Below, in pieces: positions 12,490 through 60,887 of a stretch of 64,000 nucleotides of DNA. The notes under the pieces are model-generated. The model was not told where the DNA came from, searched no databases, and saw only the letters and a list, made by a program, of their open reading frames with translations. The DNA is from Candidatus Daviesbacteria bacterium GW2011_GWA1_41_61 (GTDB lineage: Bacteria > Patescibacteriota > Microgenomatia > Daviesbacterales > UBA10151): positions 128,892 to 192,891 of the forward strand of contig LCBT01000003.1 of the NCBI GenBank assembly GCA_000997385.1, given 5' to 3'. A program made the position numbers and the translations under genes. The first letter of the stretch is position 1. Every line of letters begins with the position of its first letter.

Positions 12490-13269
12490 ATGAATTTTAA
12501 TTTAAGCAAGCGTCATAAAATTATTCTTACTTCAATTATTTTGTCGCTGGGTTTGCTGTCTACTCAGCTTGTGCCTATCTATTTAACCTACAAATTTATT
12601 GGTGGTTTAACTATTTTAGCCTATTTGACATCCCTGTGGGCTTTATGGGAGGGGTTAGACAGGCTAAAGGCGGTAGTTTTAATGATCCTTCCTACTTTAT
12701 TTACTTTGGCTGCAGCCAGCTATTATTTCTTGTTGCCTCTCAGTTGGTGGTCCAGACTGCCGGTGGCGGTCCTTTTTGGTATAACTTTTTATACTTTGTT
12801 GCTTTCTCAAAATGTTTTTAATGTCGCTTCCATGCGGACCATCCCGCTTTACCGGGTGGCTTCAACGACTGTTTTTGTCTTAACTTTAATCACCGCCTAT
12901 CTGTTATTTAACGTCATTTTTTCTTTTAACTTAATTTTTATTTGGAATGCTTTACTGATATTTTTGTTGAGCTTTCCCTTAATCCTGCATCTTATCTGGT
13001 CAATTGAAATGGAGGGAATCACTGCCTCAATTTTGATTTACTCACTGATCCTGGCTTTTCTAGTGGCTGAACTGGGGTTGGCGCTGTCTTTTTGGCCTAT
13101 CTCTAAGGCTATGGCTTCCTTGATGCTTGCTACTACTATCTTTATTACCCTGGGTATTACCACCCATGCTTTAAGGGAGAGGCTGACCAGGGGAATAGTC
13201 TGGGAGTATGTCGGGTGGGGGGTATTAGTGTTTATTATTGCTGCTATTACTACCTCTTGGGTAGGATGA
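12490..13269 (+). CDS. Polytopic integral membrane protein of unknown function
   Basis: ORF track. About 7-8 hydrophobic helices are visible. Confidence 0.5.
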   Translation: MNFNLSKRHKIILTSIILSLGLLSTQLVPIYLTYKFIGGLTILAYLTSLWALWEGLDRLKAVVLMILPTLFTLAAASYYFLLPLSWWSRLPVAVLFGITFYTLLLSQNVFNVASMRTIPLYRVASTTVFVLTLITAYLLFNVIFSFNLIFIWNALLIFLLSFPLILHLIWSIEMEGITASILIYSLILAFLVAELGLALSFWPISKAMASLMLATTIFITLGITTHALRERLTRGIVWEYVGWGVLVFIIAAITTSWVG

Positions 13270-13540
13270 GATCAAATAGAGGAGAGAGGGTACTTATTTG
13301 AGGTAATTCTTACACATAATTGATATAGTATGATATAGTTGAAGAAAATTGTGGATAAGTTTATATAAAAACTATAGGGTATATTTTTATCATCAAAAGA
13401 TCATCAGTTATTTTTTTAAAGAGCAGGGCTAAATTATTTTAGAGAGGATTGAGAGTAGAGTACTCTTTTTCTTGCTTGTTACTCTCCTGAAGATATTGCT
13501 AAATTGCTTTTCACGCGTGAAAAATAAGCGGTCTTATTGT

Positions 13541-13576
13541 TGGGGAAGATCTTATTGTTGGGGAAGAGAGGTTTGG
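13541..13576. repeat. Perfect tandem duplication of the 18-mer TCTTATTGTTGGGGAAGA, inside a roughly 1-kb non-coding region
   Basis: Seen directly: tcttattgttggggaaga tcttattgttggggaaga. Other short tandem duplications lie nearby: tgatatagta x2 at about 13321 and cttttactg x2 at about 13852. Confidence 0.7.
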
Positions 13577-14305
13577 GGGTTTAAATGGAGGTGCCATAAG
13601 ACACAATAAGCTCTTTTTGCGGGCTCTCACCTTCAGATCCGTCTTTCTCTCCCTTCCCCTTAGGATAGGGCTCTACCCGATATATGTCGTACAATGTATC
13701 TTATGCGACATTCTGGATGCCTAGGTCCAGGGGGAGACCCAGATTCGCCAGTTGACGAATAATTAAAGATTTAAAATTAAAGATAATAAATTATTATTAT
13801 TGTACTTAATTTTGCCACTTCCCAATAGAATTTTTTCCCAAAATTTTTTAGCTTTTACTGCTTTTACTGATGATTATTAAATATCGCTTATAAATTGATT
13901 AGGTTGTCCTAACAATCTAATCCTTAAATGATGTATCATACGTCTCACTTCCCTTCCGGCCGTTTTAGGGCCCTTCCAGGGCCTTATGCCTGAAAAGTCT
14001 CTTGAAAGCTCTACAGAGGTTAGATTAGGCTTGCCGAACAGTCGGACAGCTGGTAAAATGCTATTATTGTCTAGTTATTTGAATTTCCAACTTTTTAATC
14101 TTTTTTCAAATATCTAAGTTCTAAACCGGCTTTTTTAATCTTTCTCATGTTTCTATTTTCGTTGTCGTACAATATTTATCTCTTCCCGAATTATTGGCCT
14201 GGTAAACTGCCAGATTTTGCCTGATTGAAAACAGCGAACCTTCTTTTATGCATGGTAGCTTGACAACTGCCTGCTTCTACCCTACTCTAAGATTGACCAC
14301 ATAAA

Positions 14306-14581
14306 ATGGAAGATTTTAGACGGGAGTTTTTAACTAAAAATAATCTTATTGCTTTTTTATTGCTGGGTATTTTTGCTTTGTCCATACCTTTAACAGTCAG
14401 CCTGCTTAAAGAGCAGCAAAGACTAAGGTCCAAAGCTGCCGAGGAACCGCCAATTGTTTTTAAGGGAGACAGTGTTAAAGTAAACTCCACTCTGCCGATA
14501 ACAGATCCGGCTTATTACACCACCACTGATCCTACCGTCCAAGTAGAGCTAAGGTCTCCTTTGGGAGACCCAAGGCCTTAA
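14306..14581 (+). CDS. Small single-pass membrane protein (91 aa)
   Basis: ORF track. The TM helix is LIAFLLLGIFALSIPLTVSLL. It lies immediately upstream of the dockerin-bearing protein gene. Confidence 0.4.
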   Translation: MEDFRREFLTKNNLIAFLLLGIFALSIPLTVSLLKEQQRLRSKAAEEPPIVFKGDSVKVNSTLPITDPAYYTTTDPTVQVELRSPLGDPRP

Positions 14582-14600
14582 GAGAGTAAAAGGAACGCTA

Positions 14601-16391
14601 ATGAAGCACAAATCTATTATATTTTTGACTCTAGGATTAATAACCTATGCTTCGACTTTTTTTTTAGGAATACCCACTTCTTATGCAGGCAACTGTGATG
14701 CTCAATGCACCAATGATGGCATCCATAACCCTAGTTGCCCTGCTGATAGGGATTGTACTCTTCAATGTTTTAAAAATGCCGATGGAACTTGTTGGGGGGG
14801 TGAGTGGGTAGGAGATTGCGCTTGTGGTGGGAATAATACCTGTACTAATAACTATCAATCAACACCTTTTACTGATACTTATAGTACCGGGAGCTGTACG
14901 CTTACTATTACTCATTTAGGTTGGGATCTTAGTGATAATCAGCCTGTGGGGTATAGAGATTTGGGCACTGGTACAAACTCCCATCGGGTAGCAATGAACG
15001 ATTCGGGTGCTACCTGTAAAGATGAAACCAATTTAGATTTTACTAATAATTGGAATACCAGTTCTGGTAGTAATTTCTCCATAACTACGACCATTAATTC
15101 CAAAAGCGCTGGCAATACCTTAGCTGCTGGATGGCAGTTAAATGCTTCAGGTTGTACTATTGGTGATAGTAGTACAACCCAGATTAGTCCAACTCAGGTA
15201 GTGACAAATAGTGGATCAGGGACAAGAAATTATACCTTGTACTATGGATCTCCTCCTACAATAACTTTAACTCCCACTAATACTCCCATACCTACTGCTA
15301 CTCCAACTTTGCCCCCTAATGTTACTGCTACCGCCACTCCCACCTCTACTCCTATCCCAACTCCCACTAGCACACCAACTCTTACTCCCACCCTCACCCC
15401 TACTCCGGCAATTTATACTGTCTCCTACCGCTATGGGGAAAATTTAGCTGATTTAAATCAGGCCCCAAGTTATAACTATAACAGCCAACCGATAAATTTA
15501 ACTTATACCTTTTTAAATAACACTCCCGGCATTAAGACTTTATTTGTAGAATTTACCGACAGCACCGGCCGAAAGGATGTCAGGCAAAAAAGTATTACCT
15601 TGCTTCCCCCTGTTCCTAAAATTAACAGCCTTAGCTGCAACTATGATGTCTTAACCGGAATTGGGACAATTGCCAAAATCAGCGGGGCTAACTTTGGAGC
15701 TTCAGGCAGCGCTACAGTTAAGATGGATAATCAGCTTGCCCGGATTCAATCTTGGACTGATCAGTTGACAGCTACTTCTTCAACCTCTTCTTCTGTACTC
15801 AGCAGTACATCTACGGTGATAGCCAGGGTGAGCACCAGATTAGATGGAGAAATTCCGGTAGAGATGACTTTCAATGATGGACGGCAGTTAGAGGGTAGTT
15901 GTCTGATTGATACCACCACCATTAGTTTTGCCGCTTATGCTCAGTGCGCTCCCCCAACCAACCTTTCTTTGTCCGATGTTGAGGTCACAATTTATGATAA
16001 GGAGGGTGGGAGCCGTCCTTTGTATACTCAAACCATAACTTTAAACGACAAAGGTAAACCGACCAATTTTGCCCCTCAACTAGAGATTGGCCGGGACTAT
16101 GCGATGTTTGTCAAAGCCCCCCGTTCTGTTGCCCAGCGGCTAGATTTTACAGCCTTGGAAGGGACAACAGTTCTCTCCATGTTGGAGTTGGCTGTTGGCA
16201 ACATCAGCAGCAACCGGGGAGGTTTGCCTGATGGCAGGATTGATACTTTTGATGTCTCTAAACTTTATCAACAGTGGAGTTTAATCCAAAGTGTCCAAAG
16301 AAGCGGTGATTTTAACTCTGACACCCGGGTTAACAGCGTGGATTACTCTTGTCTTATTAGCAATTGGGGCAAAGAAGATGCCAAGTTTTAG
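14601..16391 (+). CDS. Secreted multi-domain protein: signal peptide, Cys-rich N-terminal module, Pro/Thr-rich linker, and C-terminal dockerin-like module
   Basis: ORF track. The signal peptide is MKHKSIIFLTLGLITYASTFFLGIPTSYA. There are 11 Cys in about 55 aa (GNCDAQCTNDGIHNPSCPADRDCTLQCFKNADGTCWGGEWVGDCACGGNNTC). A PT linker follows: TPTNTPIPTATPTLPPNVTATATPTSTPIPTPTSTPTLTPTLTPTP. The C-terminal roughly 57 aa, LPDGRIDTFDVSKLYQQW...GDFNSDTRVNSVDYSCLISNW, contain two 22-residue repeats. The second has a perfect EF-hand-like D1-N3-D5-N9-D12 Ca-loop, as in type I dockerins. Confidence 0.6.
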   Translation: MKHKSIIFLTLGLITYASTFFLGIPTSYAGNCDAQCTNDGIHNPSCPADRDCTLQCFKNADGTCWGGEWVGDCACGGNNTCTNNYQSTPFTDTYSTGSCTLTITHLGWDLSDNQPVGYRDLGTGTNSHRVAMNDSGATCKDETNLDFTNNWNTSSGSNFSITTTINSKSAGNTLAAGWQLNASGCTIGDSSTTQISPTQVVTNSGSGTRNYTLYYGSPPTITLTPTNTPIPTATPTLPPNVTATATPTSTPIPTPTSTPTLTPTLTPTPAIYTVSYRYGENLADLNQAPSYNYNSQPINLTYTFLNNTPGIKTLFVEFTDSTGRKDVRQKSITLLPPVPKINSLSCNYDVLTGIGTIAKISGANFGASGSATVKMDNQLARIQSWTDQLTATSSTSSSVLSSTSTVIARVSTRLDGEIPVEMTFNDGRQLEGSCLIDTTTISFAAYAQCAPPTNLSLSDVEVTIYDKEGGSRPLYTQTITLNDKGKPTNFAPQLEIGRDYAMFVKAPRSVAQRLDFTALEGTTVLSMLELAVGNISSNRGGLPDGRIDTFDVSKLYQQWSLIQSVQRSGDFNSDTRVNSVDYSCLISNWGKEDAKF

Positions 16392-16435
16392 GTTCCTGGA
16401 CAGTTTGTTAAAAGTGTGCTTCAATCATATATAGT

Positions 16436-17059
16436 ATGATCCTGCCAAATTTTACAGCCAGTGGTATTAAGAGACTAATTATTTTTACCGTAGCGGCGGT
16501 TATTGCCGGAGAGATAGTTTGGGCAGGTTGGGTTTTAACTCAGCCGGCAGTTAAAGTTGACCGCAAAGATGTCCCTTCAAAAGCTGCTAAGGATGTTATC
16601 AAACCAGTTTCTTTGGCGAAAGTTTCTTTAACTACTCCCCAAAAAACTGTCAAAGTTGGCCAAACTGTTCCGGTAACGATTAATATTTCTTCTTCTAAGC
16701 TCTCTGACGGAGCGGATTTGATTATCTATTATGACAGTAGACTGCTAACCGTAGTTACCTCTGGTAAACCAGCCGTACCGGTAACTGCGGGCAACGTTTA
16801 TCATGAATATCTTTTTAATGATCTGGATGAGAAGGCTGGGGTTATCTCTGTCTCAGCTGTTAACAGAAGGGGTGAGGCAACATTGGCTCGGGGGATATTT
16901 GGTCTAATTAATTTTAAAGCCAAAGCAGTCGGTCAGGCCAAGGTGGCTTTTGATTTTACCACCTTGGGGAATACCCGGGATTCTAATGTTATTGAGTCCA
17001 AAACTACTAAGGATCTGTTGGGAGAGGTTGAAAACCTGGAGGTAAATATCTTACCATGA
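16436..17059 (+). CDS. Membrane-anchored protein with cohesin-like domain
   Basis: ORF track. An N-terminal TM/signal anchor is followed by KTVKVGQTVPVTINISSSKLSDGADLIIYYDSRLLTVVT...GVISVSAVN...ATLARGIFGLINFKAKAVGQAKVAFDF. This fits the cohesin pattern 'G.tV.VPV......gi...d..i.YD...L......g......f.......g.i......... g.la.i.Fka...G...v.f'. Confidence 0.6.
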   Translation: MILPNFTASGIKRLIIFTVAAVIAGEIVWAGWVLTQPAVKVDRKDVPSKAAKDVIKPVSLAKVSLTTPQKTVKVGQTVPVTINISSSKLSDGADLIIYYDSRLLTVVTSGKPAVPVTAGNVYHEYLFNDLDEKAGVISVSAVNRRGEATLARGIFGLINFKAKAVGQAKVAFDFTTLGNTRDSNVIESKTTKDLLGEVENLEVNILP

Positions 17060-17757
17060 AGACAATGATCAAATTTAAGCTTTGGCATGTTTTGACTCTG
17101 ATATTACTTATCACCGGTAATCTATCGCTTATTGCTCTCCCTGCCTTGGCTCAAACGGCAAGCTTGTCTTTATCTCCGGCTTCCGGAACATTTAACCAGG
17201 GATGTACTTTCTCGGTTGAGATTAAGGTTGACACCGGAGGGAATCAAACAGATGGAACTGACGCCATCCTTTTTTATGACCCAACCCGCTTTACCGCTAC
17301 CGATATCAGAAATGGTACTGTTTATCAAAGTTACCCCCAAAGTAATATTTTTGATAGTGAGGGGAAAATTGCCATTGCCGGAGTAGCCTCTGTCAGTTTG
17401 CCTTTTCAAGGGGTTGGGACTTTGGCGACGATTGACTTTAAAGTAACTGATACAGCTCCTACCGGAGTCAGCCAAATCAAGTTTGATTTTGATCCTAATG
17501 ATAAGGAAAAAACCAGTGATTCCAATATTGTTGACCGGGCGACGACCTCGGATATTTTAAGTAAAGTCAGTAGTGGCAGCTATACAGTGGGAACCGGAGC
17601 TTGTAGTAAGGCAGTCAAACCTGTAGGTGGAGTTACAGATACTGATAAAGTAGCGCCTACCCTACCTCAGTCCGGGGCTTTTGAAAACACTTTAGCTTTA
17701 GCAGTGGTGGGCAGCGTCTTGATTTTAATTGGCATATTGGGGCTGCTACTGCTTTAA
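17056..17757 (+). CDS. Cell-surface protein with cohesin-like domain, signal peptide and C-terminal LPQSG plus hydrophobic anchor
   Basis: ORF track. The signal peptide is MKTMIKFKLWHVLTLILLITGNLSLIALPALAQ. The cohesin-like core is ASGTFNQGCTFSVEIKVDTGGNQTDGTDAILFYDPTRFTATDIRNGTVYQS...GKIAIAGV...GVGTLATIDFKVTDTAPTGVSQIKFDFD. The C-terminus TLPQSGAFENTLALAVVGSVLILIGILGLLLL is an LPxTG-like motif plus a TM, but it lacks a basic tail. Its start overlaps the stop of the 16436 gene by 4 nt, which suggests an operon. Confidence 0.6.
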   Translation: MKTMIKFKLWHVLTLILLITGNLSLIALPALAQTASLSLSPASGTFNQGCTFSVEIKVDTGGNQTDGTDAILFYDPTRFTATDIRNGTVYQSYPQSNIFDSEGKIAIAGVASVSLPFQGVGTLATIDFKVTDTAPTGVSQIKFDFDPNDKEKTSDSNIVDRATTSDILSKVSSGSYTVGTGACSKAVKPVGGVTDTDKVAPTLPQSGAFENTLALAVVGSVLILIGILGLLLL

Positions 17758-17783
17758 AGTCCTGTTAGGTATAGTTTGTATCT

Positions 17784-18704
17784 ATGACTCTCTCAGCTTT
17801 GATCACTGATTTTTTAGAATATCTGGAACTGGAAAGAGGAGCCTCTCAAAAAACTATCCAAAACTATGATCATTATCTAAAAAGGTTTTTGGATTTTACC
17901 GGCGATATTGAGCCTTCTTTGATTGATTTAGGTTTGGTGAGAAAGTACCGTCTCTATCTTTCCCGTTTTAAAGATCCTTTAACCGGGGAGGTGTTAAAAA
18001 GGGTGACTCAAAACTATTTTATGATTGCTCTGCGGGCATTTTTGCGGTATTTAGCCCGTCATGATGTTAACAGTTTATCAGCAGAAAAAGTTGAGCTGGG
18101 AGAAGCTGAGGCATCACCTATTAAGGTCTTGGATGAGACTGATTTAAAGAGATTGCTTAAGGCTCCTGATGTTTTAGATAAATCAGGTTTGAGGGATAAA
18201 GCCTTACTGGAAACACTTTTTTCCACCGGCCTTCGGGTGTCGGAGCTGGCCTCTTTAAACAAAGATACCATTAATTTAGACAGGCAGGAGTTTCCGGTCA
18301 TTGGTAAGGGTTCCAAAGAAAGGATTGTTTTTCTATCAGATGAGGCGGTAAAATGGCTGGATCAGTATATCAAAAGCAGGAAAGACAACTTTAAGCCTTT
18401 ATTTATAAGACACCAGGGGAAAATAGATCCGGAAAATGATGGGGAGAAGATGAGGCTTACTCCCAGATCTGTTGAAAGGATAGTGGAAAAGTATGTCAAA
18501 GCAGCAGGTTTATCAGTGAAAGCTACGCCTCACACTTTAAGACACTCCTTTGCTACAGATTTGTTGATTAATGGAGCAGATATCAGGTCAGTTCAGGAAA
18601 TGTTGGGGCATTCTAATATCTCCACCACCCAAATCTATACTCATGTTACCAATAAGCATTTAAAAGATATACATAAATCTTTTCATTCGGGTAATCGAGA
18701 GTAG
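17784..18704 (+). CDS. Tyrosine site-specific recombinase of the XerC/XerD type
   Basis: ORF track. TPHTLRHSFATDLLINGADIRSVQEMLGHSNISTTQIYTHV holds the R-H-R-Y catalytic box, and the N-terminal core-binding domain is present. Confidence 0.9.
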   Translation: MTLSALITDFLEYLELERGASQKTIQNYDHYLKRFLDFTGDIEPSLIDLGLVRKYRLYLSRFKDPLTGEVLKRVTQNYFMIALRAFLRYLARHDVNSLSAEKVELGEAEASPIKVLDETDLKRLLKAPDVLDKSGLRDKALLETLFSTGLRVSELASLNKDTINLDRQEFPVIGKGSKERIVFLSDEAVKWLDQYIKSRKDNFKPLFIRHQGKIDPENDGEKMRLTPRSVERIVEKYVKAAGLSVKATPHTLRHSFATDLLINGADIRSVQEMLGHSNISTTQIYTHVTNKHLKDIHKSFHSGNRE

Positions 18705-18767
18705 AAGTAGTACTTATTATAAACGTCTAAAGCTTGCCTTTTTGCTACGCAAAAACGTAAACACCTA

Positions 18768-18809
18768 AAAGATGTCCATAAGAGTTTCCACTTAGGGAAT
18801 AAGGAATAG
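18768..18809 (+). pseudogene. Displaced, diverged copy of the last 13-18 codons plus stop of the xer recombinase gene
   Basis: Seen directly. 18664-18705 encodes KDIHKSFHSGNRE*, and 18768-18809 encodes KDVHKSFHLGNKE* in the same orientation. The upstream RKHLKD also matches NKHLKD. Differences are mostly synonymous: TCT/AGT, CAT/CAC, TTT/TTC, AAA/AAG, GGT/GGG. There is no start codon. Confidence 0.5.
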
Positions 18810-18863: not shown

Positions 18864-19151
18864 TTAAATAATGGAATCGTATAAGTCTTTCCAGTAGGGA
18901 TTTTCTTTCTCTATTAACAGATTTTTCTTCCTCCTTACCAGATTTTTGAGTGATTTCTCTCTTGCAATGGCCAGTTTAATATCTTCATAGACTTCAAAAT
19001 AAACGAGTTTAGTTAAATTGTATTCTGCTGTAAAACCAGGAACAAGTTTTTGTTTATGTTCATACACTCTCCTTAGAAGGTTATTAGTGACTCCAATATA
19101 GATCGTAGTATTTGTGTAATTAGTCATTATGTAGACATAACTATTCCTCAT
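18864..19151 (-). CDS. GIY-YIG nuclease family protein (UPF0213/COG2827-like, 95 aa)
   Basis: ORF track. YVYIMTNYTNTTIYIGVTNNLLRRVYEHK ... YEDIKLAIAREKSLK shows the GIY...YIG...R...E...N core. Confidence 0.85.
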   Translation of the reverse strand: MRNSYVYIMTNYTNTTIYIGVTNNLLRRVYEHKQKLVPGFTAEYNLTKLVYFEVYEDIKLAIAREKSLKNLVRRKKNLLIEKENPYWKDLYDSII

Positions 19152-20291: not shown

Positions 20292-23200
20292 CTATCCCTT
20301 CTCTTCCTGGTGGGAAACTATGGTGGCTGCTACCACTCTTTCCCCCTCCCTCATCCTCATCAGTATTACCCCCTGGGTTTGTCTTTGTAAAGTGGGGACA
20401 TCTTTAATATTAATTTTAATGAGCTGTCCTTTGTTGGAAGTTAAGACCAGAGTATCACCATCCTTATCCATAATTTGGGCTGTCACAATGGGCCCAGTTT
20501 TATTTGTTACCTGGGCAGCCTTTACTCCCATTCCTCCCCTGCCCTGTTTGTTCCAAGAAGAGATGAGAGTTTTTTTGCCTAAACCGTTGGCCATAACTAC
20601 CAGCAACTGATCTCCTTTAATGTCAGACACCTTGTTTAAGGAAACCACGCTGTCATCTTTGCTCAGTCTGACTCCCCTGACTCCGGAGGTATCGCGGTGG
20701 GTGGGACGGACATTCTTTTCGGTAAACCTGATTGATTGGCCTAGTTTAGAGACAATAATCAGCTCATTTTCTCCATTGGTTGGCACTACCCAACCCAAAG
20801 TATCTCCGCTGTCAAGATTGATAGAGATTAAGCCGTTTCTTCTAATAGAGGCATATTGGGAAGTTTCAGTCTTTTTAACATTTCCTTGCTTGGTACACAT
20901 AAAGAGGTATCTGGCAGTGTCTTTTTGCCGCAGTGTTAAAATGGCGGTAATCTTTTCTCCTTGATCAATATTAATCAGGTTCACCACAGCCTGGCCTTTG
21001 GCTATCCGGGAAGTTTCCGGGATCTCCCAAACTTTAAGTTGGAAAACCCGGCCTTTATCGGTAAAGAAAAGGATGTTGTCCAAAGTCATGGTATGAAAGA
21101 TATGGCTGACAGCATCCGCCTCTTTAGTAGTAATGCCGGAAACTCCTTTGCCTCCTCTGGCCTGAACCCTAAAGGTAGAAGGGGCTTGTCTTTTGATATA
21201 ACCGCCATCAGTAATAGTCACAATAGTGGGCTCATCAGCAATGAGATCTTCCTCAGAGAATTCCCCGACTTTGGATTTATAAACCCGGGTTTTTCTTTCA
21301 TCACCATACTTTTCTTTAATTTTTACAAGTTCATCTCTGATAACTTTTAAGATTTTTTCGGGATGGGCCAGCAAATCTTCCAAATAAGCGATGGTTTCCC
21401 GGACCATCTTCAGCTCTTCTTCTATTTTTAACCTTTCTAAAGCTGCCAGCCTTCTCAACTGCATGTCCAAAATAGCCTGAGCTTGAATGTCAGTCAACTT
21501 AAATTTGTTTATTAAATTGACTTTAGCCTCATCAGCATCTTTACTTTTTCGGATGGTGTCAATAATAGCATCAATATTGGAAATAGCGATCATCAGCCCT
21601 TCCAGGATATGTTCCCTGGTTTTTGCTTCTTCCAGTTCAAACTCGGAACGTCTTCTGACTACCATTTGCCGATGGTTGATAAACTCTTCTAGAATATGCT
21701 TTAAAGTTAAAAGATGAGGTACTCCGTCTACTAAAGCCACAGTATTAACGTTAAACACCGACTGCATGGCAGTGTGTTTGTAGAGGTTATTTAAAATTGA
21801 CTTCGGTTGGGCATCTCTTTTTAGTTCAATGACTACCCTCATGCCGTGGCGGTCTGATTCATCACGAAGATCAGCAATGCCTTCCACCTTTCTTTCTTTG
21901 TGCAGTTCAGCAATCCTGGCTACCAAGTTGGCTTTGTTGACTTGAAAGGGGAGTTCGGTAATAACAATATCAAATCTGCCTCCTTTGGTCTCTTCAATTT
22001 CAGCTTTAGCTCTCATGACAACCCTGCCTTTGCCGGTAGCATAGGCATTTAAGATCTCTTGAGAATCATAGATTGATCCACCTGTGGGGAAATCCGGGCC
22101 CTTGATAAACTTCATCAGGTCTTCAACATTAGCTTCACTGGTAAATTTAGGTTCTAATTTTCCATCTTCTGCCTGTTGCTCACCTCGCGGCAAAGCGGGC
22201 CTGCTGCCTGTTGCCTTCTGGGAATGATCAATCATATAAGATAGAGCATCAATCACTTCTCCTAAGTTATGGGGTGGAATTTGGGTAGCCATACCCACAG
22301 CAATACCGGAAGCTCCGTTGAGAAGTAAGTTAGGGATAATTGAAGGAAGCCAAACCGGTTCTTGGGTGGTACCGGAATAGTTGTCTACAAAATCAACTGT
22401 TTTTTTATGAATATCCCGGAGTAGCTCATCAGCAATAGCCGATAACCTGGCCTCGGTATTATGATTGATAAATCCATTGGCCACAAATGAATGACAATCA
22501 CTTTCAACTTTCAGAGAGTAAACATTCTCTAGGCCGTTTTCTTTAACCTGGCTTACTTTTTCAAACAGATAATCGTTTGTGATAAGGTATTCTAGGAATG
22601 GTTTTAAATTTTCTCCTGTTTTTTTAAGAAAGATTTCAGATACTTGGGGAGCTTGGACTTGTAAGTTACCATATCTGTCAAAATTATGTTTGACTAAAAA
22701 CTTTGAGTAACCTACTTGTTGTCTAACATAATCAGCCAAAAAAGGAACGTAGTCGAACAAAGAGTTATCTTTTTGGTAATTTAAAATGACAACTTCGAGC
22801 TTTTTATTTTTTAGCTCTCCAACAAAACCGATCTCTTTGTAGAACTTAAGAATATTTCTTTTTCCTCGTAAGTACAATTTATGGGTTTTTCTATATTTAT
22901 CGAATCGTTTAGTACTATCAATTCCAAAGCGAAGTAGAAGAATTTGCATAGTTTTAAGGAGTGTTTCGCTGACCGAGCAACAGCTTAATTCAATCATCTT
23001 CTGTGAAGATGAAATGGATCCATCGCCTTCAAAATAGCCCCTTAAAAAAGATGAAACAGTGTTTTTAGTAGAAAGTAAGATGGTGTGAGGAATCCTTTTA
23101 ATATTTGAACGCCCCACTGTCAGCCCGATGTTTTTTAGAAAATCTATAGTATATAAGTAATGGCATTCCAGACGAAAATAGTTTTTTTTGCCGTATGAGT

Positions 23201-24134
23201 TGGGTTGGCGGATAAACTGATGTAACACAGAATCAGGAAATGTTTTTTGCCAGGCATCAATAAATTTATTGATGTATTCCGGGTCAGCGTTACAAAATTC
23301 AATCTTATTTTCGGAAATACTACCTTCAGCAACTAAACTCCCTAAAATAAAACCTAGTTCTGGGGTGAATTTTTGGGGTAAAATGGTTTGTTTCGTCCGG
23401 TCAGTTCTTGGCCCAGGATAGTAGGAGGATAAATCAAGATCTGAAACAGGCCATAAGATATCCGTGGACCTATCTATAACAACAATGTCCTCAGTTCGTA
23501 TATCCTGAAGTAGTCTCCAAGACAACTTTGGTTTTTCAGTTGCATCTTTTATGAGAGTAAGTACTGGATGGTTATAGGAGCCTTGGAGCGTAAACCCTTT
23601 ATTGGTGGTTATTTTAATTGTGGGATGTTTACCTGAGTCAAACCATTTAGAGGCCTGACTAATTTTTTTATCCTTAGATAGGACCTGAATTTGGATATTC
23701 TCCTGAGAAGCAATCTTTTCAATAGGAACTAACCCTGCGTTTGTAATTACCAAGGTATCACCTGTCACGCAATACCTCATGGCAGCCGGAGAGTCACCGT
23801 CAACTGAACCAAAATTTCCCTGTCCGTCAATTAAGGTATATCTCATAGAGAAGTCTTGGGCCATTCTTACCATAGCCTCATAAACTGGAGCGTCACCGTG
23901 GGGGTGGTAGTTTTTTAAAACTTCTCCTACCACAGCAGCAGATTTTTGATAACGGCTAGTGTGGTGTAGCCCCTGCTGGGACATGGCATAAACAATCCTT
24001 CGCTGGACCGGTTTTAAACCGTCACGGACATCGGGTAAAGCTCGGGCTACAATAACCGACATGGCATAATCCAAATAGGACCGCTTCATCTCTTCTACAA
24101 TAGGTGTGGGTTCAATTTTGCCAATATTACTCAT
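20292..24134 (-). CDS. gyrA: DNA gyrase subunit A precursor (1280 aa) containing a 438-aa intein at the active-site Tyr (gyrA-a site)
   Basis: ORF track. The N-extein ends ...[12 protein letters not shown], the catalytic-Tyr motif AAMRYTE, which is interrupted by the intein. The C-extein resumes [16 protein letters not shown]. The extein sum is 842 aa, with the typical GyrA C-terminal beta-pinwheel. Confidence 0.95.
22458..23771 (-). mobile_element. Intein with LAGLIDADG (dodecapeptide) homing-endonuclease domain inserted in gyrA
   Basis: Coordinates were derived by codon counting: residues 122-559. Block A is CVTGDTLV. Block B is [10 protein letters not shown]. The two LAGLIDADG motifs are [14 protein letters not shown] and [12 protein letters not shown]. 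It ends ...VANGFINHN, followed by extein Thr. Confidence 0.85.
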
Positions 24135-32223: not shown

Positions 32224-33924
32224 ATGCAGCCAGACCAACTTGGAATTGAAGATATCCTCTTTAAACAAGGGCTAATTAATGCTAACCAGCTTTCAGCTGT
32301 TAAATTGGAATCCATCAACAGCGGTAAATCTACGGAAAGGATTATTCAGGAACATCAATTAGTTTCTGCCGCTAAATTTTATTCTGCTAGGGCGCAGCTT
32401 TTAGGTGTTTCTTTTATTGATTTGGAAGGTAAGGCTATCCCTACCGAAGTTTTGGATCTAGTGCCGGAAGCAGCAGCCAGCCGTTACCATATCATTCCCT
32501 TTGATCGAAAAGACGATAAGTTATTTGTAGCTATGGTAGACCCATTGGACTTACAGATTATTCAATTCATTGAGAAAAAATCCGGTCTTTTTATCAAACC
32601 TTATCTGGCAGCCCTTGGGGATATTACCAAAGCTATTAATGATCAGTATTCCCAAAATTTAACTTCTGATGTGACCTCAGCTTTAAAGGAGGTTACAGAC
32701 TTAAAAAAGGGTGAAGAAGACCAAACTGCTGATAAAGCTGAAGTAATTAGGGAAGCCCCGGTGGCCAATATCATTACCCAGCTTTTAGAATATGCTGTTA
32801 AATCCCGGGCTTCCGACATTCACGTTGAACCATTGGAAGATAAAACCCGGGTGAGGTACAGAATTGACGGCATTTTGCATGAGAAGATTATTCTTCCCCG
32901 GGGTGTTCATGATGCTTTGGTTTCCCGGATCAAGATCCTCTCCAGTTTAAAAATTGAAGAAAAAAGACTTCCTCAAGACGGCAGGTTTAGTTACATCTCC
33001 AGTAAACATGTTTATGACTTACGTATCTCTACTGTTCCGACTGTTTTCGGGGAAAAAGTTGTCATGAGGCTTTTGCCTAAAAGCAGCGTTGCTCCCACTT
33101 TGCAGGAGTTGGGTCTTCGCGGTTCAGCTTTAAGAACCTTAGAAACTCAAATCACCCGTCCTCACGGTATTATTTTAATCTGCGGTCCAACTGGCTCCGG
33201 TAAAACCACCACCCTCTATTCCATTTTAACGAAGCTGTCAACCACCAGGGTAAATATTTTAACTATTGAGGATCCGGTAGAGTACCAAATCCTTGGGACC
33301 AACCAGGTTCAGGTTAACCCTCAAATTGGTTTGACTTTTGCTTCAGCTCTGCGTTCTTTCTTACGTCAAGATCCGAACATCATGTTAGTGGGAGAGGTCC
33401 GTGATACGGAGACAGCTGAGTTAGCTATCCAGGCAGCTTTGACCGGCCACCAGGTATTTTCTACCTTGCACACCAATACTGCTTCCGGATCCTTACCCAG
33501 ACTTTTGGATATGGGGGTAGAATCTTTTCTCTTAGCATCCTCCATCAACGCTGCAGTGGGACAAAGGATTTTGCGCCAGATTTGTCCCGGCTGTAAGGTG
33601 TCTTTTGATCCGCCGCCTGAGGTGGCAGACAACATTAGGCGGGTTTTGGGGAGGTTAGTTCCGGAGAACCAACCGATTAAACTTTATAAAGGTAGTGGAT
33701 GTGAACAATGCGGACATCTTGGATATCTGGGCCGGATTGGTATCTTTGAGGTTTTGTCTCTTTCTCCGAAGATTATGCAGTTGGTTTTAGAAAGATCTTC
33801 TGCCAAAGAGATTGAAGCAGTAGCTATCTCCGAAGGGATGATTACTTTAAAGCAGGATGGTTATATGAAAGTTTTAGAAGGGGTAACCACCTTGGAAGAG
33901 GTCCTGCGGGTTGCCGAAGACTAA
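32224..33924 (+). CDS. pilB: Type IV pilus assembly ATPase PilB (GspE family)
   Basis: ORF track. It has an N-terminal T2SSE_N domain. Walker A is GPTGSGKTTT, and the Asp/His boxes are present. The tetracysteine motif is CPGCKV...CEQCG. Confidence 0.9.
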   Translation: MQPDQLGIEDILFKQGLINANQLSAVKLESINSGKSTERIIQEHQLVSAAKFYSARAQLLGVSFIDLEGKAIPTEVLDLVPEAAASRYHIIPFDRKDDKLFVAMVDPLDLQIIQFIEKKSGLFIKPYLAALGDITKAINDQYSQNLTSDVTSALKEVTDLKKGEEDQTADKAEVIREAPVANIITQLLEYAVKSRASDIHVEPLEDKTRVRYRIDGILHEKIILPRGVHDALVSRIKILSSLKIEEKRLPQDGRFSYISSKHVYDLRISTVPTVFGEKVVMRLLPKSSVAPTLQELGLRGSALRTLETQITRPHGIILICGPTGSGKTTTLYSILTKLSTTRVNILTIEDPVEYQILGTNQVQVNPQIGLTFASALRSFLRQDPNIMLVGEVRDTETAELAIQAALTGHQVFSTLHTNTASGSLPRLLDMGVESFLLASSINAAVGQRILRQICPGCKVSFDPPPEVADNIRRVLGRLVPENQPIKLYKGSGCEQCGHLGYLGRIGIFEVLSLSPKIMQLVLERSSAKEIEAVAISEGMITLKQDGYMKVLEGVTTLEEVLRVAED

Positions 33925-33975
33925 GGAGAACTCTTGCAAAAAAATAATCTATTACCAATAATAGAAGTATAGGGC

Positions 33976-35028
33976 ATGAATATTCAGCAGTTATTAGAAT
34001 TGACTATTGCCAGAAACGCTTCCGACCTTCACTTAGTGGTAGGTTATCCTCCGATGCTGCGGATAAATGGCGAGCTTTCTCCGGTGATGGAACAATCCTT
34101 AGTTGATGGGGATATTGCCGGTTTGATTTTGGCGATGCTGACTCCTGGTCAAAAACAGGCCTTTGATAATAATATGGAGTTAGATTTTGCTTTGGCTTTT
34201 CAAGACCGGGGCCGATTCAGGGTGAATGTTTTCCGCCAGCAAGGCCATCTAACAGCAGCTTTTAGATTGATCCCGGTTAATATTCCTGAGGTGGACAGTT
34301 TAGGCCTTCCTCCGGCTGCTTTAAAACTGGTTAATCTTCGCCAAGGTTTTATTTTAGTGACCGGTCCTACCGGTCATGGCAAGTCAACTACTTTGGCGGC
34401 GATGATTAACCGGGTTAATCAAACTCGGCCCGCCCATATCTTAACTATTGAAGATCCGATTGAGTATATTTATCCTAAGGCTAAAGGTTTGGTCAGTCAG
34501 AGAGAGCTGTTAGTAGATACCAAATCCTGGGCCAATTCTTTAAGGTCAGCTTTAAGGGAGGATCCGGATGTGGTGCTGGTAGGTGAGATGCGGGACTATG
34601 AAACTATCGCCACTGCCTTGACTATTGCTGAAACCGGCCACTTAGTCTTGGCAACACTTCATACTAACTCGGCGGCCCAAACGGTTGACCGGATTATTGA
34701 TGTCTTTCCGGAAAATCAACAAGCCCAAATCCGTATCCAGCTGGCAGCGACACTCGAGGCAGTCATCTCTCAACGTCTGATCCCCACCATTTCTCCGGGC
34801 CGGATTTTAGCCACTGAGCTTCTGTTGAAAACTCCGGCTGTTTCTTCTTTAATCAGAGAGTCTAAAAGCTATATGATTGATAATTTAATACAAACTTCGG
34901 GAGAGCTGGGGATGGTCAGTTTAGAGACCTCCCTAGCCAGACTGGTGAAAGAAGGTCAGGTTGCTTTAGAAACAGCTCAAAATTACACCTTAAGACCTGA
35001 TGTATTAGTTAAATTGGTGGGGCTTTAA
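33976..35028 (+). CDS. pilT: Type IV pilus retraction ATPase PilT
   Basis: ORF track. VTGPTGHGKSTT, AHILTIEDPIEY and GHLVLATLHTNSAAQT are present. Confidence 0.9.
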   Translation: MNIQQLLELTIARNASDLHLVVGYPPMLRINGELSPVMEQSLVDGDIAGLILAMLTPGQKQAFDNNMELDFALAFQDRGRFRVNVFRQQGHLTAAFRLIPVNIPEVDSLGLPPAALKLVNLRQGFILVTGPTGHGKSTTLAAMINRVNQTRPAHILTIEDPIEYIYPKAKGLVSQRELLVDTKSWANSLRSALREDPDVVLVGEMRDYETIATALTIAETGHLVLATLHTNSAAQTVDRIIDVFPENQQAQIRIQLAATLEAVISQRLIPTISPGRILATELLLKTPAVSSLIRESKSYMIDNLIQTSGELGMVSLETSLARLVKEGQVALETAQNYTLRPDVLVKLVGL

Positions 35029-35040
35029 AGATTTGAAACC

Positions 35041-36249
35041 ATGGCAGTTTTTACTTATGCAGCCAAAGATAACCTAGGTCAATATCATAAAGGAGAAGTT
35101 GAGGCTGCTAATGAATATCAAGCAGCTAATCTGGTAAGGCGTCAAAAACTGATCATCATCTCTTTAAAGTCCAAAACTGAAATTTCCAAAGGGTTTTTTT
35201 TAAACTTTTTTAACCGGGTTCCTTTTAGTGAAATTGTCGTTACCACCCGTCAGCTGGCAACTATGGTCGCTGCTGGTTTAGTTTTATCTGAAGCTTTAGA
35301 TATCTTAAAGGAGCAGCAAACTAATGCCAGGTTAAAAAAAGTTTTGGAATATATTTCGACTGATGTTAAAGGAGGACTCGATTTTGCCTCTTCCATAGAA
35401 AAATTCCCGGATGTTTTTCCCAACCTTTATGCTAAATTGGTCCGGGCTGGCCAAGCCTCCGGAAAGCTGGATATAGTTTTACAAGATTTAGCTACTACCT
35501 TGGAAAAGGAAAGAGAGTTTAAAAGTAAGGTTAAAGGAGCGATGATTTATCCCCTTGTGGTGGTAATAATGATGTTTGTGGTCATTGGGGTGATGGTCTT
35601 TTTTGTGATGCCTAGGCTTATGGGTTTATACAAAGAATCAGGAATTGAGTTGCCCCTCCCCACTAAGATAGTGATTGCCTTTACTGGCTTTATCAGCGGT
35701 TTTTGGTGGGCTATACTTTTGGCCTTGGTTTTAGTATTTTTGGTTACCAAAAAATACACCGCTACGGCGGAAGGCAGATACCATTTTGATCGTTTTATCT
35801 TAGAAACTCCCGTCTTAGGTAAAATTAGCCGTTTAATAGTACTGACCAATTTTACCAGAACTTTTTCTCTGCTTACAGCTTCCGGTCTATCAATCCTTGA
35901 TGCCATTAAAATTGTCAGCGATGTGGTGGGTAATAAAGTGTACCAAGAGGCTTTAAGCGTTTCTTACCGGGGGGTGGAAAGAGGGTTGCCCCTTTCGGGG
36001 CAGCTGCTAGGTCTGCCTATTTTCCCCAGGATTGTCGGTCAGATGGTTAAAACCGGGGAAGAAACAGGTAAATTGGATGAGGTGATGTCTAAGCTGGCCC
36101 AATATTTTGAGTCTGAATCAGAACACTCCTTAAAAAATATTACTACTTTAATAGAACCGATAGTGTTAATCGTTTTAGGTGTGGGGGTGGGGTTTTTAGT
36201 CATTTCCGTTATTATGCCGATTTATCAGTTGACAACCAATATTAAGTAA
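35041..36249 (+). CDS. pilC: Type IV pilus platform protein PilC (GspF family)
   Basis: ORF track. It shows two T2SSF repeats with 3 TM helices. Its placement between pilT and the pilin gene fits. Confidence 0.9.
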   Translation: MAVFTYAAKDNLGQYHKGEVEAANEYQAANLVRRQKLIIISLKSKTEISKGFFLNFFNRVPFSEIVVTTRQLATMVAAGLVLSEALDILKEQQTNARLKKVLEYISTDVKGGLDFASSIEKFPDVFPNLYAKLVRAGQASGKLDIVLQDLATTLEKEREFKSKVKGAMIYPLVVVIMMFVVIGVMVFFVMPRLMGLYKESGIELPLPTKIVIAFTGFISGFWWAILLALVLVFLVTKKYTATAEGRYHFDRFILETPVLGKISRLIVLTNFTRTFSLLTASGLSILDAIKIVSDVVGNKVYQEALSVSYRGVERGLPLSGQLLGLPIFPRIVGQMVKTGEETGKLDEVMSKLAQYFESESEHSLKNITTLIEPIVLIVLGVGVGFLVISVIMPIYQLTTNIK

Positions 36250-36883: not shown

Positions 36884-36886
36884 GAG

Positions 36887-38861: not shown

Positions 38862-38882
38862 CAACTCTTTTCCCGATGTGAT

Positions 38883-59006: not shown

Positions 59007-60285
59007 AATCAACGCTGATGCCTTTTCTGTCTACATGCTGCCAAAAGCAACGCTTTTGGTTAATGCTTTGGGAAAGTTTAGGTAAATTGATTAAAGCTTT
59101 GATTAAAGCCACATATTCTACAAAACTTAATAAATAGAAAAAGATATACATGGTGGGAGAAATTAACAATAATTTGATTTTGTCTTTTTTCCCTAATGTT
59201 TCTTCAGCTAGAATATTTATGCCGATATAGGCAGAGATAACAGTATAAGCTGAGATAAAGGTAAAAGTGTCTTTAAAAATAAGGATTACCAGCAGAATAT
59301 AGCCTGCCAAAAACGGTTCTAAAAAGAAGGCAAAATCACAAAAGATCGCAAATGGTAAATAAAAATAGGTCAAAAGCCGGCTATATTTTTGATCAGAATT
59401 AAAAAACATATTTTTATTTTTGAAAAATGTCTGACTTCTTCCCCATTTCCAACGATAACGCTGTTTAATCAGGGCGCCTATTGTTTGACAACTTTCAGTA
59501 TAGGCTATTACATCAGCTCCATAAATTACCCGGTAGTGTTTATTGCCTTTTTGTAAGATTTTCATGGTTAAATCAATATCTTCAGTAACGGTGTCGTGAT
59601 CGTAAAACCCAACCTTTTTTAAAATGCTTTTTCTAAATACTGAACCGATTCCGCCGATAATATATTCAATGTTAAAAGTAGTTTGAGCTCTCTTCATTTG
59701 GTAGCAGATTAAATATTCAAATTTTTGAATTAAGTTTATCAAGCTGTTATCATCGATAATTTTGACATTAGAAGATAAGGCTGCGACTTTTTGATCTTCA
59801 AAATATTGGGCAGCGTAAGTCAAAGCATTTTTTTCTAAATAAGAATCACCATCAAGGCACATTACCAGTGATCCTTTAGTATAGTTTTTTATCCCCTTAT
59901 TTAAAGCATTAGCCTTACCGGAATTTTTTTGTCTAATTAACTGTAAATTCAAAAGCTTGTTTTTTTCTTTAAATTTTCTAACCAAATTAGGGGTATGGTC
60001 AACTGATCCGTCATCAATCACAATAATTTGCAGTTTACTTTGAGGATAGTTATTAGAAGCCACAGAGCTGAGGCAGCGGATAATCGTTTTTTCTTCATTA
60101 TGGGCGGGAATAACGACGCTAAGTAACGGCTTATAGAGCTTCTTTTTGCTTTGGGTAGATTTTTTTTGAGCAAGATGTTTTTTAAGCCCATAAATATCAG
60201 AGCCGATAAGAAAGATCATCATTCTCAACAGATTAACAATACCCAAAAAAACAATTAGATAGCTAATAAAAGATAATATTTTCAT
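58996..60285 (-). CDS. Processive family-2 glycosyltransferase (PgaC/IcaA/cellulose-synthase-like)
   Basis: ORF track. LLSVVIPAHNEE, IIVIDDGSVDHT and GKANALNKG are present. The DGD motif is CLDGDSYLE, ED sits in TVTEDIDLTMK, and QRYRWKWG is the Q(R/Q)xRW motif. It has several TM helices. Confidence 0.8.
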   Translation of the reverse strand: MKILSFISYLIVFLGIVNLLRMMIFLIGSDIYGLKKHLAQKKSTQSKKKLYKPLLSVVIPAHNEEKTIIRCLSSVASNNYPQSKLQIIVIDDGSVDHTPNLVRKFKEKNKLLNLQLIRQKNSGKANALNKGIKNYTKGSLVMCLDGDSYLEKNALTYAAQYFEDQKVAALSSNVKIIDDNSLINLIQKFEYLICYQMKRAQTTFNIEYIIGGIGSVFRKSILKKVGFYDHDTVTEDIDLTMKILQKGNKHYRVIYGADVIAYTESCQTIGALIKQRYRWKWGRSQTFFKNKNMFFNSDQKYSRLLTYFYLPFAIFCDFAFFLEPFLAGYILLVILIFKDTFTFISAYTVISAYIGINILAEETLGKKDKIKLLLISPTMYIFFYLLSFVEYVALIKALINLPKLSQSINQKRCFWQHVDRKGISVDFTV

Positions 60286-60887
60286 ATGACTTTTAAAAAG
60301 TCGAAATACATCAACCTTCGTTTACTGTTTAAAAACCCGCTGCAAGTCATTAAAGTCAGCTGGGGTTTACCTTGATAACGAAAAATTTCCATGTTTTCCG
60401 GTGCGACTTCCTCATATTCTCTGTATCTATATTCAAAAATCAAATTATTCTTGGTATAAATTAAAACTTTATCTCCTATCTTTATCCTTTTTAAGGATCC
60501 GAATAAATTATCCGTGTTGTGGGCATAAATTAAGGTATTACCGGAGAAATTATTTGGCCGGGAAGTCACTTCGGCAAAATAGGCATCAACCGGAGAAATA
60601 TCCCAAACTTTAGTGTTAAGATTATATTTTCCGGGTTTAATATTGGCCTTTATTCCTACCGCAGGCACCTCTATCGCTGAAGGGTCCCCTAGTAAATAGT
60701 TTGTTTGGGGTAGAGAAGGCTTCCGACTCTCTGATAAAGATAAAAATCCCAGCCTTTCGTTTATCTGAGACTGCCTTCCCCCCCAAAAACTTCTTGTTTG
60801 AATAACAAAATAGCCTATCATTAAAACTACTAATAGATAGGCCGGTAAGAGCTTGAGAATAAGCGAGGTTCTATTTAAATTGATCAT
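60282..60887 (-). CDS. Sortase (transpeptidase)
   Basis: ORF track. It has an N-terminal TM anchor. LGDPSAIEVPAVGIKANIKPG, the His in NTLIYAHNTDN, the catalytic QLTLMTCSGF (TLxTC) and the downstream KRRLMY (Arg) are present. Its 3' end overlaps the GT2 gene start by 4 nt. Confidence 0.8.
   Translation of the reverse strand: MINLNRTSLILKLLPAYLLVVLMIGYFVIQTRSFWGGRQSQINERLGFLSLSESRKPSLPQTNYLLGDPSAIEVPAVGIKANIKPGKYNLNTKVWDISPVDAYFAEVTSRPNNFSGNTLIYAHNTDNLFGSLKRIKIGDKVLIYTKNNLIFEYRYREYEEVAPENMEIFRYQGKPQLTLMTCSGFLNSKRRLMYFDFLKVI

Follow-up and report, generated by a model that had tools for sequence, protein, structure and literature searches.

Whether four adjacent genes of Candidatus Daviesbacteria bacterium GW2011_GWA1_41_61, a very small bacterium from groundwater (Microgenomates), encode a cohesin-dockerin assembly at the cell surface, and what such an assembly would carry, is the question raised by a locus at positions 14306-17757 (+ strand) of a 64-kb stretch of contig LCBT01000003.1, referred to here as the window. 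An earlier reading made from the sequence alone (the sequence-only reading) had described a secreted protein with a dockerin tail followed by two anchored cohesin proteins. We found that the locus consists of four open reading frames (ORFs) on the same strand, here named S, D, CA, and CB. We estimate at roughly 0.7 the probability that together they form a minimal, non-cellulosomal cohesin-dockerin display system on the Daviesbacteria envelope. The genes and their parts, as predicted, are the following.

14306..14581, + strand: S, small membrane protein of 91 aa
14601..16391, + strand: D, secreted protein of 596 aa with a dockerin at its tail
14688..15245, + strand: head of D (residues 30-215), cysteine-rich and beta-rich, 12 Cys
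15249..15410, + strand: Pro/Thr-rich linker of D (residues 217-270), recognised by its sequence
15411..16148, + strand: stalk of D (residues 271-516, about 245 aa), beta-rich and common to D proteins
16149..16388, + strand: dockerin module of D (residues 517-596), from Pfam Dockerin_1 and the family profile
16194-16277, + strand: dockerin repeat 1 (residues 532-559), VGNISSNRGGLPDGRIDTFDVSKLYQQW, with the insertion-bearing loop GNISSNRGGLPDGRIDTFD
16305-16367, + strand: dockerin repeat 2 (residues 569-589), GDFNSDTRVNSVDYSCLISNW, with a canonical D-N-D-N-D loop
16436..17059, + strand: CA, 207 aa, N-terminal transmembrane anchor and one cohesin domain
16607-17056, + strand: cohesin domain of CA (residues about 58-207), from Pfam Cohesin
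17056..17757, + strand: CB, 233 aa, signal peptide, cohesin domain, linker, LPQSG, and C-terminal transmembrane helix
17155-17601, + strand: cohesin domain of CB (residues 34-182), from Pfam Cohesin and AlphaFold2
17662-17676, + strand: LPQSG pentapeptide of CB (residues 203-207)
17677-17754, + strand: C-terminal transmembrane helix of CB (residues 208-233)

The spacers between S, D, and CA measure 19 nt and 44 nt, and CA and CB overlap by 4 nt. By this layout, S-D-CA-CB is predicted to be a four-gene operon in which CA and CB are translationally coupled. All four ORFs lie within the interval given by the sequence-only reading, which had suggested co-translation of the cohesin genes. Co-translation is supported by the nature of the overlap, an ATGA classic for translational coupling that is kept in 41 of 57 related loci (see below). 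It had also called this overlap in-frame, which is wrong since the two genes lie out of frame (frames 2 and 1). In the records of the identical contig LBZY01000003.1, NCBI names both D (UU73_C0003G0169) and CB "hypothetical protein". Throughout the 64-kb window there is one match to a dockerin-type calcium loop, one LPXTG-like tail, and one ORF with a sortase-type TLxTC motif. As each motif occurs once and the domain matches are statistically supported, these features of the cassette are not due to chance.

A single genuine cohesin domain is present in each of CA and CB. With Pfam Cohesin (PF00963; curated gathering cut-off 24.1 bits), CA scored 30.8 bits and CB 34.9 bits, and the model also matched 38 of 45 CA orthologues (E≤0.001). 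A family profile built on these 45 orthologues retrieved nothing but cohesins from the PDB sequences, the best match being a type II dyad (3l8q_A, E 1.4e-10). The two window proteins are 29% identical over 146 aa, and their profiles were aligned by hhalign with a probability of 99.9% (E 6e-35). An AlphaFold2 model of CB based on 42 homologues (mean predicted local distance difference test score (pLDDT) of 86.1) displayed a confident beta-sandwich at residues 35-182 in addition to an N-terminal signal helix, a disordered linker, and the C-terminal transmembrane helix. When this model was compared to the PDB by Foldseek, the top 50 matches were all cohesins, with template-modelling (TM) scores of 0.73-0.81 and root mean square deviations (rmsd) of 2.5-3.5 Å. 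The best of these were type I cohesins, led by 6kgf_C (E 1.9e-11, TM 0.79, rmsd 2.7 Å). The model of CB has the nine-stranded jelly-roll of cohesins, and CA is tied to the fold through profile comparisons. The CB family profile gave a single marginal match in the PDB sequences (E 0.017), itself a cohesin, a result that is settled by the Foldseek search. Thus, the two cohesin-type modules that had been recognised by pattern next to the dockerin gene are confirmed by domain score and, for CB, by fold. CB has 549 homologues at E<1e-5; among those listed, nearly all are 205-257 aa long, nearly all carry a precomputed PF00963 match, and the source names, where given, are Daviesbacteria or unclassified Patescibacteria. 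A few members of the CB family have been automatically named "cohesin domain-containing protein" in public records. In NCBIfam, sorting-signal models included, none of S, D, CA, and CB had a match.

The last 80 residues of D are predicted to form a dockerin. Searched in isolation, the last 83 aa matched Pfam Dockerin_1 (PF00404; cut-off 22.9 bits) in two stretches with 34 bits (E 3.5e-8), and the same model matched the tails of 43 out of 43 orthologous D proteins (best, 9.9e-14). The dockerin family profile retrieved both type I and type II dockerins from the PDB with both repeats aligned (4fl4_A, 7.6e-11; 1daq_A, 1.7e-8). The two repeat segments that had been seen at the end of the 596-aa protein are both present. 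The second had been described as a textbook D1-N3-D5-N9-D12 loop, and the Ca2+ ligand positions of this loop (DFNSDTRVNSVD) are indeed fully canonical. The first had been taken for a degenerate copy. Its ligands are in fact non-canonical; however, it is better described as a loop with a lineage-typical insertion of 8 residues. Repeat 1 keeps ligand positions 5, 9, and 12 (DGRIDTFD), while positions 1 and 3 are shifted by the insertion, D1 being replaced by N. Located after the initial G(D/N)I and before the DG.I(N/D)..D core, the insertion is the norm in the family, where it comprises 4-8 residues (consensus LPVGDIFP..GGDGKINSLDKSELNRQW). It is missing from a few divergent members, in which both loops are canonical. 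A dual binding mode is typical of many type I dockerins. Since the repeats of the D dockerin are not symmetric, such a mode would seem to be disfavoured here. With domain matches for both families and the expected fold for CB, the cohesin-dockerin interpretation of the sequence-only reading largely stands.

Scanning species-representative genomes for CB yielded 71 related loci, all of them in Daviesbacteria, Microgenomates, or Patescibacteria. Gene order was scored with hidden Markov models (HMMs) derived from the window and the first relatives, and the order D, CA, CB recurred throughout. In 59 loci, the sequence available ahead of CB spans 3.5 kb or more; directly upstream of CB and on the same strand, CA was present in 57 of these and a dockerin protein in 56-57 (exceptions, L010 and L013). 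The flanks are fixed as well, with RuvC-DUF5656 upstream wherever the contig reaches that far and XerC-GyrA downstream. Because of this fixed chromosomal position, we conclude that the cassette is vertically inherited and not mobile. A single dockerin per locus was found in 49 loci. In all six loci with two dockerin proteins, three or more cohesin domains are encoded, the additional one usually being fused directly behind one of the dockerins (L054, L057, L066, L067, and L076). L060 and L077 show a tandem duplication of the D-CA unit, with CB remaining single. The proposed assembly is strengthened by the adjacency of D, CA, and CB in essentially every related genome and by dockerin and cohesin numbers that rise together across loci. 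Since some 70 related species have this cassette at one and the same chromosomal location, it probably serves throughout the lineage to attach variable binding proteins to the surface of the cell.

A second, paralogous locus (L073:4990-13649) occurs in the same metagenome-assembled genome as L067. It encodes a 594-aa protein with both a Cohesin (41.7 bits) and a Dockerin_1 match (31.7 bits), a 274-aa protein with weak matches to both domains, and a LamG-domain protein. On account of this locus, some Daviesbacteria have a wider cohesin-dockerin network.

Mean pairwise identity amounts to 59% for CB, 42% for the dockerin, and 38% for CA. We compared the evolutionary distances of the components in a mirror-tree test on 49 loci, with significance expressed as Mantel p. 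Dockerin distances correlated with those of CA (r 0.41, p 0.001); the corresponding values were r 0.12 (p 0.14) for CB and r about 0 for XerC. This pattern is suggestive of CA as the cognate cohesin.

Several results weigh against a display system of this kind. At two loci, cohesins occupy the conserved position with no D there (L010, CB only; L013, CA and CB). CB, the most conserved component, does not co-vary with the dockerin, and its ligand may be something else. Stalk and CA distances correlate even more closely (r 0.60), and with the stalk controlled for, the dockerin-CA correlation drops to r 0.10 (p 0.10). Since the signal thereby loses significance, linkage on the DNA is an alternative to a shared interface. 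When the whole 596-aa D protein was searched, Dockerin_1 reached 17.7 bits and thus stayed below its cut-off. Ca2+ binding at repeat 1 is uncertain given its non-canonical positions 1 and 3. The AlphaFold model of full-length D, based on an alignment of 6 sequences, had a pLDDT of 39, with low-confidence helices at residues 552-563 and 582-587. Finally, the Gram_pos_anchor model scored 17.3 bits on CB, below its cut-off of 20.

What the dockerin would carry differs from locus to locus. D starts with a signal-peptide-like segment and is predicted to be a Sec-type secreted protein. D proteins range from 267 to 1728 aa and have in common only a C-terminal portion of about 325 aa that comprises the stalk of about 245 aa and the dockerin. 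In BLASTP searches, residues 271-516 of the window protein matched the region directly before the dockerin in nearly every related locus with a D gene, at 22-35% identity and at 74% in the close relative L007. Pfam gave no match to the stalk alone. The D protein P0004 has a TIG domain on record for the protein as a whole. The long PT linker noticed earlier in the dockerin protein is present as the Pro/Thr-rich segment at residues 217-270, and its coding region contains imperfect DNA repeats of 12-30 nt (15269-15403).

The heads are lineage-specific, with a mean column identity of 7% and no common similarity. In the window protein, 10 Cys fall within residues 30-100 and 12 within the head in total, which corrects the count of 11 given previously for the N-terminal module. 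This head had neither a Pfam match nor an enzyme signature. Searched against 1.84 billion proteins, it found 19 cluster representatives at E≤1e-3. Among the related loci, L007 matched over most of its length (40% identity) and L040 over one stretch of 47 residues. The module recurs in another protein of the head-stalk-dockerin type (P0142) and is shuffled into large adhesin-like proteins with SdrD_B, PA14, fn3, or Big_13 domains. Most of the 58 heads of related loci that were searched with Pfam had no domain at all. The remainder included cohesin (4 heads), pectate-lyase-like beta-helix (3), SdrD_B (2), and fn3 domains (2), and single occurrences of LamG, F5/8-type-C, TSP1, and a family 60 carbohydrate-binding module (CBM60). 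No catalytic family of glycoside hydrolases was detected by Pfam in any of the 58, in line with the earlier remark that no such enzyme is attached to the window dockerin. In two species (L017:2863-6318 and L032:2467-6213), the dockerin of D is followed by a further conserved domain, about 225 aa in size, in which a zinc-protease-like HEAAVHELAHVWWH motif is present and Pfam has no match.

Both cohesin proteins are held at the cell surface, in opposite topologies. This placement follows from sequence features and, for CB, from the structural model. CA has one N-terminal hydrophobic helix (residues 14-34) and a type II topology, in agreement with the membrane anchor assigned to it before. CB consists of a signal peptide (residues 1-33), the cohesin domain, a flexible linker (183-202), LPQSG (203-207), and a terminal hydrophobic helix (208-233), so that every element noted for it by the sequence-only reading was recovered. 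The tail consensus of 120 CB homologues is LP[PQE][AGS]G[TS]E..T...AIVG..LT.LGILGLALL-COOH. The consensus pentapeptide of the family is LPPAG; LPxxG occurs in 82 and LPxTG in 4 of the 120. CB itself ends in GILGLLLL with no basic residue, and 115 of the 120 homologues likewise have none in the last 8 positions. One sortase gene was found in the window.

60282..60887, - strand: sortase, Pfam Sortase 64.7 bits, TLMTC motif, about 43 kb from the cassette

It is a possible candidate for the enzyme that processes the CB tail. Covalent anchoring by sortase is nevertheless doubtful because LPQSG is non-canonical, a basic tail is missing, and Gram_pos_anchor remained below its cut-off; a canonical sorting signal is not supported. 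The tail of CB may instead simply anchor the C-terminus in the membrane, or it may be a sorting signal peculiar to the lineage. The sortase gene overlaps the start of a family-2 glycosyltransferase gene (58996-60285, - strand), and this pair is adjoined by a gene for a CAP/cysteine-rich secretory family protein (58392-59006, + strand).

S, which the sequence-only reading did not include, is a conserved part of the cassette. It has a transmembrane helix at residues 14-34 followed by QQRLRSKAA and a conserved extracellular segment that ends in VQVELRSPLGDP. The protein is conserved in L006 and L007, where VELRSP.G is invariant, and its general pattern is KKN-TM-QQ.LKSRAA...PI.F.G..V...I.LELTSPLGPP (TM, transmembrane helix). 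Neither Pfam nor NCBIfam contains a matching family. Among the related loci, the S module forms a gene of its own in 20 and is fused to D, at the N-terminus, in 16; further large secreted proteins encoded close to the cassette start with it as well. Where S is separate, as in the window and in L006, D has a signal peptide of its own. This pattern of fusion and fission ties S functionally to D. S could serve as a signal-anchor leader or as a small tether or assembly factor.

Upstream of S lies a gap of about 1 kb (13270-14305, core approximately 13674-14000) with no ORF of at least 60 aa. In 30 related loci this gap is conserved as DNA, on the + strand (nhmmer, E 1e-39 to 1e-4) and always between DUF5656 and the first gene with an S module; it contains an invariant CCGTTTT and hairpin-like blocks. 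A search of Rfam gave no match, either at gathering score or at E≤1. Covariation was modest: 68.9% of cells were paired compared to 67.1% in shuffled alignments, and the score of 0.188 (0.161 in shuffles) was reached by 7 of 500 shuffles, with 31-53% for slid controls. This element may be a non-coding RNA or a long regulatory leader of the cassette. Within the gap, an 18-nt unit is perfectly duplicated in tandem at 13532-13567 (TCTTATTGTTGGGGAAGA twice). The gap that precedes the cassette in L006 contains a gene for a 122-aa four-helix-bundle protein of the 23S_rRNA_IVP family (L006:7039-7407, - strand; PF05635). This family includes accessory proteins of diversity-generating retroelements. 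Such a retroelement, as suggested by the Avd-like gene of L006, was rejected for the window, which contains neither a gene of this kind nor a reverse transcriptase.

In the proposed mechanism, D would be exported and its dockerin would then bind Ca2+ and plug into a cohesin, as suggested by the genomic association. CA would be the more likely cognate partner since D and CA co-vary and are duplicated together, and CB might serve as a second socket, more conserved and located nearer to the wall. The 245-aa stalk and the PT linker would hold the lineage-specific head away from the cell. The heads would be interchangeable binding modules, those recognisable being of lectin, adhesin, beta-helix, or cohesin type. 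As the recognisable heads are of binding types, a likely role would be attachment to a partner cell, a particle, or a polymer, or the formation of a surface coat that varies. Where a species has two D proteins, the cohesin fused behind one dockerin would allow the second D to dock, similar to an adaptor scaffoldin. A more far-reaching version, which we consider rather unlikely, takes the cassette as a lineage-defining attachment organ in which a vertically inherited socket (CA/CB) receives a rapidly exchangeable plug (D) whose head would set the specificity for a host or partner. CA could then capture D at export and hand it to the wall-proximal CB, with the conserved S peptide and the conserved non-coding stretch upstream as possible dedicated components for assembly and regulation. 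If true, this would be the first defined host-recognition apparatus of a candidate phyla radiation (CPR) lineage other than Saccharibacteria, and a natural cohesin-dockerin system evolved for the swapping of specificity rather than for enzyme synergy.

The same hardware might also anchor an abundant S-layer-like protein, with the hypervariable head serving evasion of phages or predators, an explanation that differs from the display system in purpose and not in mechanism. It would fit a cassette that is lineage-wide, single-copy, and placed among housekeeping genes, with heads diverged beyond recognition on conserved anchoring parts and a recognisable Pfam binding domain missing from most heads. 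However, no self-assembly domains are in evidence, those heads that can be recognised are of lectin, adhesin, or beta-helix type, and the head module of the window recurs in adhesin-like proteins with SdrD_B and PA14 domains. We regard such an S-layer-like coat as unlikely. It is less probable still that the partners act in trans, CA and CB capturing dockerins from elsewhere or from another cell and D docking on a foreign cohesin in cell-to-cell adhesion. Such an arrangement could account for the missing co-variation of CB with the dockerin, for the two species that keep cohesins with no neighbouring D, and for the second locus with cohesin and dockerin proteins (L073) in at least one Daviesbacteria genome; in addition, other Patescibacteria have dockerin proteins with no reported cohesins (PMC10633639). 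Against this stand the near-universal adjacency of D, CA, and CB, the co-duplication of D with CA, the matching dockerin and cohesin counts across loci, and the single dockerin within the 64-kb window.

A small cellulosome that tethers polysaccharide-degrading enzymes for the breakdown of extracellular polymers is highly improbable. The pectate-lyase-like beta-helix in 3 of 58 heads, the CBM60 in one, and the HExxH-containing domain that follows the dockerin in L017 and L032 would point in this direction, yet the 58 heads contain no catalytic glycoside hydrolase family, the window head has no enzyme signature, the window encodes no multi-cohesin scaffoldin, and 49 loci have one dockerin each. 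That the cohesin and dockerin motifs are a chance resemblance or an annotation artefact could be argued from the whole-protein Dockerin_1 score below cut-off and from the marginal CB profile match (E 0.017). This explanation is effectively refuted by the HMM, profile, and fold-search results on CA, CB, and the dockerin and by conservation in 71 species. Taken together, a non-cellulosomal display system remains our preferred reading of the S-D-CA-CB cassette.

The cassette is embedded in housekeeping genes. YebC, RuvC, and a DUF5656 membrane protein are encoded upstream; the downstream genes encode an XerC/D-type recombinase, a GIY-YIG protein, endonuclease IV, GyrA with a LAGLIDADG intein, Alr, and Mur ligases.

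17784..18704, + strand: XerC/D-type tyrosine recombinase, Pfam Phage_integrase 158.8 bits, starting 26 nt past the CB stop

In 68 of 69 related loci, CB is followed on its own strand by a homologue of this recombinase gene. The recombinase is probably a housekeeping Xer within a frozen gene order and may be regarded as a conserved neighbour of the cassette, a candidate member at most; co-transcription of such a gene with a surface-protein operon would be odd. An invertible switch, an idea prompted by this constant neighbour, was rejected as no credible inverted repeats were found in 13200-18800. Between XerC and endonuclease IV lies a gene for a stand-alone GIY-YIG nuclease-domain protein of 95 aa (18864-19151, - strand). 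GyrA (20292-24134, - strand; 1280 aa) is split by an intein with a LAGLIDADG homing-endonuclease domain; the syntenic GyrA of L006 has 853 aa and no intein. A type IV pilus or pseudopilus locus extends from 32224 to 47267 (+ strand) and encodes PilB-like and PilT-like ATPases, PilC, at least seven pilins with an N-methyl motif, the prepilin peptidase PilD, and PilM. Several ORFs in this locus had no Pfam match (41145-42119, 43132-44913, and 45980-46546). The sequence-only reading had mentioned a pilus locus and sortases nearby; the former is present at about 32.2-47.3 kb of the window, but the latter amount to the single distant gene described above. Its further premise, an episymbiotic way of life, is an assumption for this organism.

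To our knowledge, how ultra-small bacteria of the CPR/Patescibacteria recognise and hold their partners is largely obscure beyond a few cultivated Saccharibacteria. In this context, a whole lineage with a genome of about 1 Mb that keeps constant anchoring parts and a species-variable head at one chromosomal address is of interest. Its modules are small and expressible (dockerin about 80 aa, cohesins about 150 aa) and suited to tests, on uncultivated bacteria, of how proteins are displayed at the surface and how partners are specified. Cohesin-dockerin research gains a minimal system from nature whose two single cohesins are anchored in different ways and whose dockerin is asymmetric and bears an insertion in its first calcium loop, along with about 50 naturally paired orthologue sets for specificity studies and, for protein engineering, candidate orthogonal plug-and-socket pairs. 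In the searchable literature, we found no paper that ties Daviesbacteria or Microgenomates to cohesins and no description of such an operon; papers that combine cohesin or dockerin with CPR or Patescibacteria dealt with other topics, as far as mostly their titles and abstracts indicate. The cohesin and dockerin domains themselves are already known and the proteins are public. What is new is the picture at the level of the operon, i.e. the fixed position, the two single-cohesin anchors, the head-stalk-dockerin design, the insertion-bearing dockerin, and the S leader.

Among known systems, we compared the cassette with clostridial cellulosomes, represented by cell-surface anchoring scaffoldins and type I/II pairs such as OlpC/SdbA of C. 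thermocellum and CohA2-Doc0917 of C. acetobutylicum (PDB 4dh2, 2b59, and 6kgf). The same two domain families are involved, and a single-cohesin cell anchor is likewise combined with a secreted dockerin protein. CB superposes on type I cohesins with TM scores of about 0.8, the CA profile best fits type II cohesins, and the dockerin profile aligns with type I over both repeats. In contrast to the clostridial systems, the window cassette has no glycoside hydrolase, no carbohydrate-binding module, and no multi-cohesin primary scaffoldin, and it is anchored by transmembrane helices or an LPxxG-like tail, where those systems use SLH domains or a canonical LPXTG signal. Moreover, repeat 1 of the D dockerin has an insertion of 4-8 residues, the two repeats are asymmetric, the cargo is one hypervariable head per locus, and the host belongs to the CPR and has a genome of about 1 Mb. 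The cassette does not fall under the definition of a cellulosome because it has neither a multi-cohesin scaffoldin nor a carbohydrate-binding module nor a dockerin-borne glycoside hydrolase.

The toxin and glycosidase complexes of Clostridium perfringens, which are built by means of cohesin-dockerin (X82/FIVAR) modules (PDB 2vo8, 2jh2, and 2w1n), resemble the cassette in using such pairs outside cellulosomes, on secreted proteins that act on the surface of another organism. These three structures were weaker matches of the CB model (E about 1e-6). The C. perfringens modules are located on large glycoside hydrolases and link the enzymes to each other, whereas both cohesins of the cassette are anchored to the cell with no enzyme involved. 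CB is also similar to Gram-positive LPXTG proteins in its signal peptide, its LPxxG, its C-terminal hydrophobic helix, and the presence of a sortase in the window, but it differs from them in its LPQSG motif, the missing basic tail, and the near-invariant GILGLALL end of the family.

The sequence-only reading had considered cohesin-dockerin pairs outside cellulosomes to be rare. This was overstated, as such modules are described as widespread in genomes, with a mostly unclear function, in PMC9012536 with reference to the survey by Peer et al. (2009; PMC3035643). According to PMC9012536, archaeal cohesin-dockerin pairs have also been shown to bind, and a role in cell-cell interaction has been proposed for the modules of consortial anaerobic methanotrophic (ANME) archaea. 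For one of the cultivated Saccharibacteria, a protein with a dockerin domain is reported to be essential (PMC10633639). The cassette shares with these archaeal and other non-cellulolytic modules a host that does not degrade cellulose and a small number of cohesins per protein, and the Archaeoglobus fulgidus cohesin 2xdh was among the top structural matches of CB (E 1.6e-9). Unlike these systems, however, the Daviesbacteria cassette has its presumed partners side by side in one translationally coupled operon whose order and position are conserved throughout the lineage, and combines them with a head-stalk-dockerin design and the S leader module.

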